A stretch of DNA of 32,829 bases from Promethearchaeota archaeon (GTDB lineage: Archaea > Asgardarchaeota > Lokiarchaeia > Sigyniarchaeales > SOKP01): contig JAHLWS010000066.1 of NCBI GenBank assembly GCA_019057795.1, positions 1 through 32,829 of the forward strand, given 5' to 3'. The notes under the pieces were generated by a model. That model was not told the origin of the DNA. It saw only the letters and a program-made list of their open reading frames with translations, and did not search any database. The position numbers and the translations under genes are program-made. Each line of letters begins with the position of its first letter. Positions within the stretch are counted from its first letter, which is position 1. Positions 9,501 to 15,224 of the stretch are shown here, piece after piece.

Positions 9501-12500
9501 ACAATTCTCCAAAGCTTACTCTTTTTGTCCATAATTCAGAGGATTGTAGAGATTTTATCTTATTAAACCAATCAGTTAATCTTAAAGGATATTTCTCAAC
9601 AATTACCTGTGTTAATTTATATAAGCTAGTTTTTAATTCATTACGACTGACTCGAATAAGATTCCAAATATCTTCTCTTCTTGCAGGTTTTATATTTGAA
9701 AGATAATCAAGAGCTTCTATGGCTAAATTAAAAACATCATCATCACTATTTCTTAAATAATATCCATAGAATTCTCCTGCTTTAATTAAATATAATAAGT
9801 AATTATGCCACCATGATGGATTGGATTCTAAATATAACTGCAAATTCTTATGGTGTTTCCTTTTATTAATATAACCTAGTGTCCACAGTTTTCTACGATA
9901 TTTTTCTAAACCTCTATCTGAATATTTAACTTGTCTTGAAATTAAAAGATCATTTACATCAGGAATTATAAATTCATTTTCTATTTCGCTGATTGGAAAT
10001 TTTGTAAGTGCTTTATAAAAGATAATCTGAGAATTTAATTTATCTTTATAATTTGACGCATATTCTTGAAGCTCTTCTTTTAATAATTCCAATTTTTCGT
10101 TTTTAGCTAAGCTTTTGATTATATAGATTTGAATTATTTCATTTAGAGAATCCATATCAATATTTTTAATTGTATTCCAATACGGTTTATCATGGAATTT
10201 TATTAAATAATTTATGTATGCTTCAATATGTGGAAAGGAATTCTCAGGATTTTCCATTAACTTCTCTTCTATAAAACTTGGGTTAATTTTACACGCTCTC
10301 AAATAGAGAAGTTCATTATTAACAGAATATGAATGTATTCCTAAACATTTACAGTACTTGAGAAATACTTCTACATTTTCAAACTTCCTAAAAGAAATTG
10401 TTTCGTTGAAGATTTGAAATAGTTCATAGCTTAGATCATCAAAACCTTGTTTTGCTAATTGAATTATAATACTTAAAGCTAAACCCTTATTGATAAGCCA
10501 TTTGTTATGATTTATTGAATATGTATATTTTAATACTTTTTCATGATCGCCCAAAGTTAACAATACTTTTGATAATAAGTTCCAATTCATATGATATTCG
10601 ACTCTTTGTTGAGTGATATTTTTAAGAGAGGCAAGGCGACTTAAAGATATTAAATCTTTTTTATCTTTTGCTGATTTTATCGCCCAAGTAATTGCGTTTT
10701 CGATATCTTCCTCGGATCTATAATTATATAAAGCTGTATCTATTAAGTCACTTGTTACCTTTTCTAATATATAATCATAATCATCAACTTGATAAGCATA
10801 TTCAAACACATAGCTAAACCATTCATCACTATATTCCAGCGTTTTAAGATGATTTGTAATATCAAGATTAATTGCTTTCAAATACTGATTATCAAATTGA
10901 GAAATGACATATTCTCTGAAGCTATTGTGAAATATTGAAACGAAATCATTATTGTCTTTAACAAGATGCTTAATTAGCTTAAAGCAATCTTGAAATACAG
11001 GTAGTGCAAGAATCTTTTGAAAATTGATTAGTTCATCTTTTTTAACTTGAAACCTTAGACAAGCTAATACACCACATAAATGTCTTACATTTCCTTTCCC
11101 AAATTGTTGAAATTCATCCCATAAATAATCATAATAAGATTTTATTTCACCATTCTCTATAGACGTTAGATTACTTGCAACTTCCTCAAAGTCTTGATAA
11201 TCTTTCATTAATTCTGAAATATAACGTAGATAAATTGGTAATCCTTCACTTATTTTAAATATTTTGTGAACTTGCTCTTCGAATAATATATTTTCACCTA
11301 ATTTTTTTTTAAGATAGGTTAGAGTTTCATTAAAATCAAAGAGAGGGAGGACAATCGATTGTTCAGGATTATCTTTTATAATTTGTAAAAATATAGGCCA
11401 TTTATGTAATTCCTGTGTTCCTACGATAAAAATGATTCCTTTAGGAATACTTCTTGGAAGGGTATTTAATAGACTTTCTTGAACTTCAACTGCCATTTTT
11501 TCAGCGTGATCAAGACCATCCAAAAAAATAACTAACTTTTTTTCATTCTCTTCAAAATGATTTCCAATTTCTAATAGAATATGATTAAAATTATGCTCGG
11601 AATAATCATAACGTCTATCTAGAATTTCAGAATAGTTGACTTGAATTTGATTTAATAGATTTATTCTTAAAGTTTTTGCTTGTATTCTTAAATTTTGAAA
11701 ATTATCATTGATGTCAACAAAACAATAGTACTTAATAACTTCATATTCAGCTAAATCTCTTAAAATATCTAAATATTGGGTTAAACTTGTAGATTTACCA
11801 CTTCCTGGTAGCCCAGTTATTATTATATAATCTCCATTGATATTTTGAATAGCCTTTTCAAGCTTCTTATTAAATAATTCACGTTGAACATAAAATTCTT
11901 CATTAATCTCAAAGACTTGATGTAATAAATACTTGGTTGTTTCTTTTTCAAAAATTTCTCTAAAGAAATTAGAATTTATTGAATTTCGACTATAAATAGC
12001 ATAATTTTCAAACTCAATTTTTAAAATATTATAAACAGAATTATCATATATACCAAGTCGTGTGTTAAGTAAATTTTCTTGTATATATTGGTTTAATTCT
12101 GGAATATTTTTTTCCTTAAAATGAAACTGAAAGCTTTTTAAAAATTCTTTAAACTCTGCTTCATTTAATTCTGAAGATTCTTTTAATTTATTACGGTTCT
12201 CACGAGCTTTCTTACGTTTTTTATTTTCAATAAATTGTTCAGTGAAAGTTCCATCATTATTAATAATTTCATTGATTTCTTCATCAACTGAATGATTAGT
12301 TAAAAGAAATGTATAAATTTCTTTTTCAGGATGATTTTCCTTAAAGCTTTTCCAACCCTCTGCAAACTTCTTGATAAACACCCGTTTCTTATTAGGGTCT
12401 TCTTCATCTATAAAATCAATTATCTTGTAAGATGCATGTGGATCAACTGAATACTTAATCTGATATGCAAGAATTTGATTATCAATAAAAATAACAACAT

Positions 12501-13145: not shown

Positions 13146-13704
13146 ACTTCAAATCTAACTTAGCGACAGATTAAAATTCAAAAGACTTGTTTAGGGCGAA
13201 TTTTATCTTTCTTTGAAATAACAATTATTTCGCGAGTATTTAAATCTTTTTACTTAATCGATTTAATATAACTCCGGAATTTTTCCTTCTTAAATTAATT
13301 GCTTTTTATTTCAGAGGGCAAAAAACTACCTCCTGAAACGAGCAAGATTTATTTTTCTTTTTTTAGAACCATTAGCATTTATATCTAATAAAATAATAGA
13401 TAATATTGACTATATTGACGAACAACGGTAATTTACTGGTGAAATCGAGTTAAATTCACAACAAATCTTAGAGAAATTTGAGTATCGTCACACTAAAGAA
13501 TTGAAAATAAAATTTGAGTGTTAAAAACTTTTGGATGTGGGATCGTTTTGAAATTGTGCGCAACCTCTTTTTATAATCTTGCTTAAAATTGTCGATTATA
13601 ATTTTGCAAGAATCTGGTCCAGCTCCAATATTTTCTATAAGATATAATTTATAATTGTTCGAAAATATGAAGATTAACTTTTTTGATAAAGAATTAAGAA
13701 CAAA

Positions 13705-14037
13705 TTAGAAAAAATGAATTTGCTTATTCAAGTATTTATCTAGCGAACCATCTTTCAAAAAATAATCTTTCCAATCGTCTTTCGGTCCAATCAATAAGTA
13801 AAAGTTTATCTCAGGTTCAAGTTTAATTTTAGCGTTTTCAAAACTTTTTTTAAATTCTAACACTTGGTCTTCTTTTGCATTTTTCTTAGTAGTCTCCCAT
13901 ACAACATAACAAAAGAAATATAACTTAGTCTCAATACCATATTCTTTCATAAAAAATTTGTAATTTTCATACCCGCTTCTTAAAGCTTCAAAATCGCGTT
14001 TAATTGTAGTATAATTAATGGTTTCCCTTGGAGGCAT
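13705..14037 (-). CDS. Hypothetical protein, probably the 5'-truncated half of a PD-(D/E)XK nuclease
   Basis: The frame stays open upstream of the ATG and reads ...HLIELK-MPPRE before running into an AT-rich repeat tract. Confidence 0.4.
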   Translation of the reverse strand: MPPRETINYTTIKRDFEALRSGYENYKFFMKEYGIETKLYFFCYVVWETTKKNAKEDQVLEFKKSFENAKIKLEPEINFYLLIGPKDDWKDYFLKDGSLDKYLNKQIHFF

Positions 14038-14100
14038 TTTAAGTTCGATTAGATGCGAACAAAAAGTGGCTCTTTTTGGAGTGTCTTTCTCACTTTTTTT

Positions 14101-14153
14101 TTCTTATTATTTTTTCTTATTCTTATTCATTTCTTATTATTCTTATTATTATT
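14101..14153. repeat. Degenerate TTCTTATT(A) short tandem repeat tract
   Basis: ttcttattat/ttcttat/tcttattcat/ttcttattat/tcttattatt seen directly. Confidence 0.6.
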
Positions 14154-14251
14154 AAAACCAATAAATTTGAGTCTAAAATTGAAAAAAAGTTAACTCCCAA
14201 GCGTTCGATATAAAAAGGAAAAATTCCGATATTTCGGTAAACCAGCTAAGT

Positions 14252-14266
14252 GGAAAGGTTTAAATA
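14252..14266 (+). promoter_or_regulatory. Archaeal BRE + TATA box
   Basis: GGAAAGG-TTTAAATA, ending about 20 nt before the structured region. Confidence 0.55.
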
Positions 14267-14284
14267 TTTGCAAGAAAAAATAGA

Positions 14285-14604
14285 TATTGTAATTGTATAA
14301 AAAGATAAAATCTTTGAAGTTTTGTCCGATCTCAATTTAAATTGTGCTCGGAAAAAAAAGAAATAAAATAGGTAAATCAAACCATGGCTCCTGTCATCAC
14401 TCTGGATTTTTGTCTTTTGGTAGCGTGTAATACACGCTCATTTCGCTTTTCTTCTCCTATTTTATTTCTGACCTTATCGTTAGGTCGAGGTGACAGGGAC
14501 CATCTTTTCTTTCTGAAGCTTATTTGAATAAAAAAAGGCTAGCGATTTTCAAATTATATTGTAGGAGCTGAACCACTTGATTTTAAGGCTATTTTATTAC
14601 AATA
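14285..14604 (+). ncRNA. Candidate ~320-nt structured non-coding RNA of unknown family
   Basis: 9-bp terminal stem (14285-93/14596-604), 15-bp stem with 2 G-U pairs (14384-98/14489-503), 14-bp perfect stem (14359-72/14456-69), hairpins 14301-15, 14325-52, 14422-38, 14470-86; TATA upstream and T-run downstream. Confidence 0.55.
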
Positions 14605-14611
14605 ATTTTTC

Positions 14612-14619
14612 TTTATATA
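14612..14619 (+). promoter_or_regulatory. Putative TATA box for the 14682 gene
   Basis: TTTATATA about 63 nt upstream of the ATG. Confidence 0.35.
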
Positions 14620-14681
14620 GCCAAGTTTAGACTATTGGGTAATTAATTTAATTTCAACGATCAGTATGAATTAAATGAATC

Positions 14682-15224
14682 ATGGTAGAATATCACAACA
14701 AAGCCTTTTTTGGATCGAAAGTGGGGATGTTTTTCGATAGCGGTTCCTGGACTAGTCCGTTTTTTTATCTTAAATTTATCAAGAAACGAGACAACGACAC
14801 GTGGGAAAAACCCTCGTTAAGAGAAGGCAAGTCCATAAAGTTTTCTTTAGAAGACGCGGCGCTTATACTAAGGGTATTGAACCGAGAAGTATTAAACTGG
14901 AACACGGTTCACGTGTATAAAGAAAATAAAACGCACATCTCATTTCAATGGGAGAAAGGTAACAAAGAGCGCCTTCACGTTAACGGAGGCGAATACCACA
15001 AAATGTTAAACTACGCCGAGATAATAGTATTTGAATCGCTGTTGGAGCACGTATTTGGCGAGAAGATCACCCATTCGACCGTTACTTCCAAAAATGGAAG
15101 TTTTAAGAAGTCAGTTGGCGTCCAATCCGAAGAAGAAAAACCCGAATTAATGGTTACCGAAGAAATAATAAGAAACACTCGACCTGAAAGTCAACCTATT
15201 GTTTTTAAACAAAAACACAAATAA
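14682..15224 (+). CDS. Hypothetical protein, possible Whirly-like ssDNA/RNA-binding fold
   Basis: Duplicated beta-sheet plus helix pattern: YLKFIK..WEK...IKFSLED..LIL / KTHISF...HVN...KMLNYAE..VFESLL; disordered tail. Confidence 0.55.
   Translation: MVEYHNKAFFGSKVGMFFDSGSWTSPFFYLKFIKKRDNDTWEKPSLREGKSIKFSLEDAALILRVLNREVLNWNTVHVYKENKTHISFQWEKGNKERLHVNGGEYHKMLNYAEIIVFESLLEHVFGEKITHSTVTSKNGSFKKSVGVQSEEEKPELMVTEEIIRNTRPESQPIVFKQKHK

Follow-up and report, generated by a model that had tools for sequence, protein, structure and literature searches.

Introduction

Sibling small RNAs (sRNAs) that carry C/U-rich seeds and depend on Hfq or Sm-type proteins are known from Listeria (LhrC1-5) and from Firmicutes (RsaE/RoxS). 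Eukaryotic small nuclear RNAs (snRNAs) belonging to the Sm class carry an Sm site, RAU4-6GR, between two stem-loops; the site in U7 reads AAUUUGUCUAG. From Asgard archaea, to our knowledge, very few structured non-coding RNAs (ncRNAs) have been described. Here we analyze 32,829 nt of DNA from a Promethearchaeota archaeon of the Lokiarchaeia (GenBank assembly GCA_019057795.1, contig JAHLWS010000066.1, positions 1 to 32,829; hereafter the window) and argue that positions 14252-14512 of its plus strand very probably make up a whole and independent gene whose product is a small structured ncRNA. A preliminary description, made from the letters of the window without database searches, had drawn attention to this region as an RNA-like unit in which two long helices, A and B, cross.

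Several features of the RNA recall LhrC1-5 and RsaE/RoxS: dispersed paralogous genes, every one of which has a promoter and a U-run of its own (seven copies in this genome, one to nine in relatives); an unpaired, anti-Shine-Dalgarno-like pyrimidine strand; and a U-rich strand beside stem-loops, as in an Sm/Hfq module. It differs from them in being archaeal, larger and without sequence or Rfam relation, in combining a closed three-way junction with a leader pseudoknot or alternative helix, and in a 22-nt box that has no counterpart there. The likeness to Sm-class snRNAs lies in a box, GGAUUUUUGUCU, between a stem and hairpin 1, in size (120-230 nt) and in the presence of several gene copies; here, however, the base that follows the G is U rather than a purine, and there is no spliceosomal or histone-processing context. 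Since its range is a single Asgard family, the RNA is no ancestor of the eukaryotic snRNAs. With 5S rRNA (RF00001) it has in common a core of ~120 nt, a closing helix formed by the 5' and 3' ends, and a three-way junction, but the arms have the wrong lengths and the signatures of loops C and E are missing. Finally, like the orphan structured RNAs among the Rfam candidate motifs, the family is defined by covariation and conservation alone and is restricted to one lineage; unlike them it is multi-copy and shows pseudoknot-type pairing to its own leader.

A family of small RNA genes

The conserved stretch extends from the promoter at 14252, through a predicted start, to the U-run at 14505-14512. 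A B recognition element and TATA box (BRE/TATA) is in place where the preliminary description had put it, ~100 nt 5' of the core. Judged from TATA spacing alone, transcription would begin near 14289, and the U-run is likely to be an archaeal terminator and the 3' end; the predicted primary transcript is then ~225 nt long and its core ~125 nt (121-126 nt). In the core, the junction closed by helix B holds a near-invariant 22-mer, two hairpins that covary and a pyrimidine-rich strand that is unpaired; the U-run terminates the core (Table 1).

Seven copies, 65-83% identical, are found in the genome to which the window belongs (87 contigs; the window is C66), and they are alike solely from the promoter region to the U-run after helix B. 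BLAST recovered one to nine copies from each of the 24 genomes of the genus. A phylum-wide model search with strict filters was positive in 29/29 genomes (six genera) of the window's GTDB family and in 0/121 genomes from 24 other families. With a broader model (R3), applied at the level of the order, matches were obtained in 21 of 21 genomes of the family, in one of 14 from the sister family and in none of five from two further families; the single sister-family match lies on a 1.8-kb contig of a metagenome-assembled genome in 1150 contigs. Three sister-family genomes that are each a single contig gave no match with R3, and ordinary transcriptomics may therefore have missed the family. By these comparisons the locus in the window is one accessory paralogue within a 1-9-copy RNA family of one Lokiarchaeia-type Asgard family.

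The unit is shorter than first proposed. A unit of ~320 nt with a 3' boundary near 14614 had been suggested; conservation stops at ~14512. The segment 14515-14614 has no counterpart in any paralogue and is not conserved in the closest relative either, where (contig C35 of genome G008) homology runs from ~14245 to ~14512, with none beyond. The 9-bp helix thought to join the two ends of the longer unit (TATTGTAAT at 14285-93 with ATTACAATA at 14596-604) exists as sequence, but the closest relative keeps neither of its arms and it is near chance: when the sequence is shuffled with dinucleotides preserved, 9 bp of pairing between the 70 nt at one end and the 70 nt at the other turn up in 4.9% of cases, and an inverted repeat of 9 bp anywhere in 61%. 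Folding energies, compared with shuffled controls, follow the same division. For the conserved unit (14289-14514) z is -3.35 and for the core (14381-14506) it is -4.62, with 0/200 shuffles as good in either case, whereas the earlier-proposed unit of 333 nt folds just slightly better than shuffles (z = -1.9).

A search of the whole window against Rfam 15 at gathering thresholds gave no match. At E<=10 the region 14000-14720 gave chance-level matches alone (E 0.36-5.8), far under the thresholds, and ARAGORN found neither a tRNA nor a transfer-messenger RNA (tmRNA). This agrees with the earlier impression that signatures of the signal recognition particle (SRP) RNA, RNase P RNA, tRNA, tmRNA and riboswitches are missing; SRP and RNase P RNAs are both encoded elsewhere in the same genome. 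A full-text literature search turned up no description of this RNA family. The family appears to be absent from Rfam 15 and uncatalogued; its function we infer from sequence features. The proposal of an undescribed archaeal ncRNA is thereby borne out to the extent that the family is conserved, covarying and strand-specific, with its own promoter and U-run, and the checks that had been named beforehand (conservation, covariation, folding energy relative to shuffles, and Rfam) all favored it.

Covariation and the crossing of helices A and B

Both long helices are in place. Helix A consists of 14 perfect base pairs, and a 14-bp inverted repeat occurs in 2/1000 (0.2%) dinucleotide shuffles of 14252-14614; helix B is paired at 14 of 15 positions, with two G-U pairs and one mismatch. 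A covariance model (R1) built from the seven own-genome copies gave 102 matches in 99 fetched loci, and 96 distinct homologues were analyzed. The R1 alignment covers helix B and both hairpins. Standard pairs fill 96.7% of its pair cells (85.1% in shuffles), and it contains 282 double-change cells, compared to 59 in shuffles and no more than 50 in controls that offset the partners by 1-3 columns. Changes on both sides affect 21 of the 28 pairs. Some copies have a helix-B sequence that is wholly different and yet still paired; in hairpin 2, GACCU/AGGUC alternates with GACGC/GCGUC and others among the homologues. All four local hairpins noted earlier are present, and the two inner ones – hairpins 1 and 2 – covary. 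The 3-bp stem ACC/GGU, on the other hand, shows changes on one side alone, and an inner pairing GGAU/GUCU is invariant across copies and hence gives no covariation signal. Among varying pairs, G-U or U-G combinations outnumber A-C or C-A combinations 115 to 26, an excess that fits an RNA read from the plus strand.

To assess helix A we took, in each of the 96 distinct copies, the duplex that the 16 nt preceding hairpin 2 form with the 130 nt upstream in the same copy. In 43% of them this duplex is at least 2 standard deviations better than with shuffled leaders, and these include copies whose A' sequences are strongly different (L151, L124, L043, L062, L079 and L120). In the copy under study the duplex is worth -15.6 kcal/mol, compared to -6.9 kcal/mol for shuffled leaders. 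When helix A is modelled as nested (model R2), ~80% of its cells are paired and double changes are seen at all 14 pairs. In this copy and in many more, leader segment A complements A', which forms the 3' half of the pyrimidine-rich strand, and the pairing crosses helix B. Many copies of the subfamily with the GACGC hairpin are without helix A. An all-against-all covariation scan gave no convincing further tertiary pairs.

Together these data show, as far as alignments can, that the crossing order A-B-A'-B' is conserved across a large part of the family, with each helix backed by covariation. The preliminary description had read this order as either a large pseudoknot or two conformers, a reading that holds: both crossing helices are kept, and nested folds of this copy with helix A (-52.0 kcal/mol) and with helix B (-51.3 kcal/mol) are isoenergetic. 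The minimum-energy fold of the full-length RNA takes helix A; the core alone takes helix B.

The invariant 22-mer and the pyrimidine-rich strand

The sequence CUGGAUUUUUGUCUUUUGGUAG is the same in 7/7 own copies, has exact matches in at least 116 public contigs and differs by at most 1-3 changes in the most divergent model matches: it does not change while the surrounding helices change their sequence fully. It is probably the loop of the 3-bp stem ACC/GGU. The box within it (GGAUUUUUGUCU / GGAUUUUUGU) lies between helix B, extended by ACC/GGU, and hairpin 1, with U as its 3' flanking base; weak inner pairing of GGAU with GUCU is possible. An ungapped scan of the whole genome for Watson-Crick and G-U complements of the 22-mer found only the antisense strands of the genes themselves and a truncated eighth copy, and against the genome's own 16S and 23S rRNA the best duplexes are not above those of shuffled 22-mers.

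A coding explanation – a 47-aa open reading frame (ORF) at 14384-14527, or a micropeptide from a conserved ATG – was considered and rejected: read from the upstream ATG, the 22-mer falls in all three frames (48/32/17), and the ATG is missing in 25/122 copies.

The linker that follows hairpin 1 contains UUUCGCUUUUCUUC in this copy and UUUCGCCCUCCUCC in the copy that we regard as ancestral (see below). The latter resembles an anti-Shine-Dalgarno sequence; the 16S rRNA of the same genome ends in ...GAUCACCUCCU. Among copies the pyrimidine character is kept and base identity varies (CCCUCCUCC versus CUUUUCUUC), as is expected if the strand forms G-U pairs with G-rich partners. The strand is unpaired in the helix-B fold. 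Sites of the GGAGG type are enriched 5-10 fold at positions -18 to -3 of long ORFs in this genome. A search for complements of 11-mers from the pyrimidine strand gave low-complexity, A-rich matches alone. Five loci (L065, L085, L088, L107 and L115) have an extra hairpin of ~30 nt (…CCGUGAUUCACACGG…CUGGGGAAUCCCC…) between hairpin 1 and the pyrimidine strand.

Function and alternatives

The explanation that we find best overall, although we stop short of calling it probable, is an independent small RNA gene whose product acts in trans as a ribonucleoprotein (RNP). That the RNA acts in trans, by whatever means, seems likely. The reasoning rests on layout: a closed and stable core, an invariant U-rich strand flanked by stem-loops, a pyrimidine strand, a 3' U-run and sibling genes correspond to the arrangement of Sm/Hfq-dependent sRNAs. 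In the mechanism that we propose, the invariant box that contains AUUUUUG, flanked by stems, would serve as a platform on which protein assembles; the likeliest protein would be an Sm-like (SmAP/LSm) ring, on the model of Hfq/Sm-dependent sRNAs. The platform is suggested by a 22-mer that stays fixed amid changing helices, that has no extended complement elsewhere in the genome and no better complement than shuffled sequences in 16S or 23S rRNA, and that places AUUUUUG between two stems. Pairing with purine-rich sites, for example Shine-Dalgarno regions, would fall to the pyrimidine-rich strand. Helix A would have one of two roles, either docking into the junction to make a pseudoknot or competing with helix B to make a second conformer, and in both it would gate the pyrimidine strand for as long as the leader is neither displaced nor removed. 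The two parts taken jointly, an Sm-like platform plus a pyrimidine pairing face, are a tentative proposal by analogy, with less to recommend it than trans action as such. LSM-domain matches number mostly four per genome in the RNA-bearing family and mostly three in other Asgard families, related genomes not being independent observations. The window's own genome has four (C31:64678-64872, C21:36791-37006, C77:190976-191170 and C70:91771-91890).

Several points weigh against this explanation. The RNA is known here from DNA, and both transcript ends are predictions. Searches for partners and targets gave neither a partner protein nor a target RNA. The covariation counts were made on model-fitted alignments, which are biased towards structure. 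More than half of the copies have a weak helix A or none, so the core function cannot depend on it; in the copy studied here the CCUCC motif is degraded. The Sm-like character of the box is presumed from a 7-nt resemblance to the Sm-site consensus, with U instead of a purine after the G. The fourth LSM match of this genome (C70:91771-91890), at 25 bits, is weak and partial.

If the stronger claim were true – that GGAUUUUUGUCU is a genuine Sm site and these RNAs are the cores of Sm-ring RNPs in an Asgard archaeon, which we consider improbable – then a particle resembling an snRNP (stem, Sm site, stem-loop, U-tail) would have arisen among prokaryotes, in a lineage related to eukaryotic ancestors, and the leader pseudoknot would control assembly of the particle or access to its pairing face. 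More generally, the family offers a well-defined covarying fold, a fixed U-rich strand of 22 nt and a conserved leader-junction pairing. Should the fixed strand be a site for an Sm-like protein, the RNA would be a tractable model of Sm-type RNPs in close prokaryotic relatives of eukaryotes; should it be a pairing seed, the family would be a rare case of multi-copy regulatory sRNAs in archaea. Either way, its covariance model would allow annotation of hundreds of blank intergenic islands in Lokiarchaeial genomes. The contribution of this window is twofold: its paralogue is an accessory one in another setting, and both crossing helices were tested directly and covary.

Of the competing explanations, a true two-state switch survives best. 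Helices A and B would then exclude each other; temperature, a ligand or leader processing would toggle the RNA, and the pyrimidine strand would be exposed in one state only. The nested folds that contain A and B lie 0.7 kcal/mol apart in this copy, both helices are conserved, and the choice between them differs, as described, between full-length RNA and core. Yet, on a geometric estimate, the at least 11 nt between A and B and the ~20 nt between A' and B' look sufficient for a pseudoknot; many copies have B without A, so that switching is not the core function of the family; and there is no association with genes of a ligand type. We consider a switch rather unlikely.

A structural or catalytic RNA, in which the 22-mer and the junction form the tertiary core of a scaffold or of a self-cleaving or other ribozyme and helix A belongs to a compact pseudoknotted fold, appears quite unlikely. 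Invariant junction strands amid freely covarying helices, combined with long-range pseudoknot-type pairing, are the usual signature of a ribozyme or RNP scaffold, and no trans target for the 22-mer was found in the genome or in 16S or 23S rRNA. However, there is no match to a ribozyme or scaffold family in Rfam, the covariation scan yielded no further tertiary pairs, and helix A is dispensable in many copies. Known small ribozymes, moreover, have scattered conserved bases, unlike the long contiguous U-rich run seen here.

A leader or riboswitch acting in cis on the gene at 14682, to which the preliminary description had linked the unit, is very improbable. The RNA is co-oriented with this gene, which encodes a 180-aa protein and begins 170 nt downstream, and 78/109 copies are co-oriented with the next gene. 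The bias is nevertheless due to one group of 41 syntenic orthologous loci: among the rest the count is 37/68. The downstream genes encode unrelated products (a radical-SAM enzyme, a Hel308-like helicase, a 180-aa protein of no known function) and lie at a median distance of 253 nt, the closest relative (G008) has a different downstream gene, and the U-run closes the unit. Random orientation outside the syntenic group, together with variable neighbors, thus points to an independent gene and not to a leader. The companion idea of a module formed with the 180-aa protein and a RadA paralogue fails likewise, the arrangement not being kept in the closest relative.

Still less can be said for an element acting at the level of DNA, whether a replication origin, a structured single-stranded DNA (an alternative raised at the outset), a miniature inverted-repeat transposable element or an integration site. 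The sequence is multi-copy and the 9-bp inverted repeat flanks the unit as earlier proposed, but that repeat is unique to this locus, as well as being unconserved and near chance. The one to nine promoter-bearing copies per genome are dispersed, share only the stretch from promoter to U-run and have no terminal repeats; many are syntenic orthologues; the asymmetry between G-U and A-C combinations is that of an RNA; and viral contigs hold no exact match to the 22-mer. An element of this kind is extremely improbable.

A divergent 5S rRNA can practically be dismissed: the core has a suitable length (~121-126 nt) and a closing helix, and RF00001 has no match in this genome although 16S and 23S rRNA are present, but RF00001 fails to match this region even at E<=10, a separate 5S-like locus (C49:29447-29672, minus strand) is homologous to relatives' candidates with the signatures CCGAACCCGGAAGUUAA and AGUAC...GGGAA, and the RNA described here is multi-copy, variable and confined to one family.

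Features of the locus

Table 1. Predicted features of the RNA gene and its promoter region (coordinates of the window).
Feature	Position	Strand	Remarks
Promoter-plus-leader module	14214-14312	+	nhmmer profile; includes the palindrome, BRE/TATA and the first leader hairpin
Small palindrome CCGA/TCGG	CCGA 14226-29, TCGG 14234-37	+	Inside the promoter-plus-leader module
BRE/TATA box GGAAAGGTTTAAATA	14252-14266	+	Form AAAG(A/G)TTTAAATA kept in paralogues and closest relative
Leader hairpin AAAGAU/AUCUUU	14301-14315	+	Larger loop in C63, C80, C56 and 13175-13289(-)
Leader hairpin UCCGA...UCGGA	14325-14352	+	Paralogue-specific; kept in G008 with a C-G to U-A change; not in other paralogues
Helix A, 5' strand AGAAAUAAAAUAGG	14359-14372	+	In the 5' leader; perfect pairing with 14456-69
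Helix B, 5' strand	14384-14398	+	Closing helix of the core; 12/12 modelled pairs change on both sides
Near-invariant 22-mer CUGGAUUUUUGUCUUUUGGUAG	14402-14423	+	U-rich; contains the Sm-site-like AUUUUUG
Hairpin 1 (GCGUGU AAU ACACGC)	14422-14438	+	Helix 5 of the model: 98.7% of cells paired, 3/4 pairs double-changed
Pyrimidine-rich linker CAUUUCGCUUUUCUUCU	14439-14455	+	Unpaired; from copy alignments
Helix A, 3' strand (A') CCUAUUUUAUUUCU	14456-14469	+	Within the junction that helix B closes
Hairpin 2 (GACCU UAUCGUU AGGUC)	14470-14486	+	Helix 6 of the model: 99.1% of cells paired, 5/5 pairs double-changed
Helix B, 3' strand	14489-14503	+	Pairs with 14384-98
U-run UUUUCUUU	14505-14512	+	Likely terminator; homology to all relatives stops here

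Genomic context and distribution of copies

The ancestral, syntenic paralogue of this genome is the copy at C49:59248-59414, which has counterparts in nearly all genomes of the genus. It lies between a divergent 132-aa membrane protein with four helices and a radical-SAM enzyme, an arrangement found in 41/124 fetched contexts; a second group of orthologues precedes a Hel308-like helicase. Clustering of neighbors for a partner gene recovered syntenic orthologue blocks only. TATA-like octamers keep a preferred distance from the 22-mer: over 118 copies their peak lies 140-160 nt upstream of it.

The truncated eighth copy (C9, ~10449-10470, minus strand) consists of the 5' strand of helix B and the first 17 nt of the 22-mer, after which the sequence is unrelated.

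Titles of database records (Odin-, Thor-, Hermod- and Hodarchaeota) had suggested a wide spread among Asgard archaea; this was rejected, since the model searches place the RNA in one family only. The records behind L038, L049, L058 and L088, titled Hermod-, Thor-, Odin- and Hodarchaeota, do carry the RNA. For at least two of them, L058 and L038, the GTDB-based set has the matching genome under the window's own genus or family, so the phylum labels look wrong. Two loci with a Patescibacteria (L079) and a Nanopelagicaceae (L091) label hold full copies and look misbinned. In L063 and L152, two near-identical contigs labelled Saccharibacteria, the 22-mer is exact and the rest of the RNA is missing.

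Other RNA classes

Individual classes were compared and rejected. SRP RNA and RNase P RNA fall away because both are located elsewhere in the genome. Box C/D sRNAs are recognized by a C box (RUGAUGA) near the 5' end, a D box (CUGA) near the 3' end and a terminal stem; 14352-14514 contains no UGAUGA, and its sole CUGA (14467-70) is internal, across the boundary between A' and hairpin 2. A Y RNA was rejected in that the genome has no match to TROVE (PF05731) and the control genomes were matched. In a search for the La protein the controls were without a match too.

The 5S rRNA of the RNA-bearing family scores 25-30 bits with RF00001, under the cut-off of 38, compared to 50-68 bits in the sister family. 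The candidates in L184-L187 are sub-threshold but full-length, with clear 5S signatures and seemingly extra or rearranged sequence. Their homologue in the window's own genome, on C49, was missed wholly by the Rfam search.

A promoter-plus-leader module

A profile search with nhmmer revealed a module of ~115 nt, promoter plus leader, that is common to this copy and three others (C63, C80 and C56) and that recurs in the window at 13175-13289 on the minus strand, in front of a protein gene. This recurrence places the first leader hairpin in the promoter module and outside the RNA core. The protein gene is an ORF of 91 aa (13145 to 12870, minus strand) that matches only the last 65 positions of the anaerobic ribonucleotide reductase NrdD (PF13597, 496-560 of 562, E = 1.8e-16). 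The match covers two CxxC pairs and a glycyl-radical-type loop, RVTGYY; we take it that the ORF may encode a stand-alone 'spare part' protein like GrcA/YfiD.

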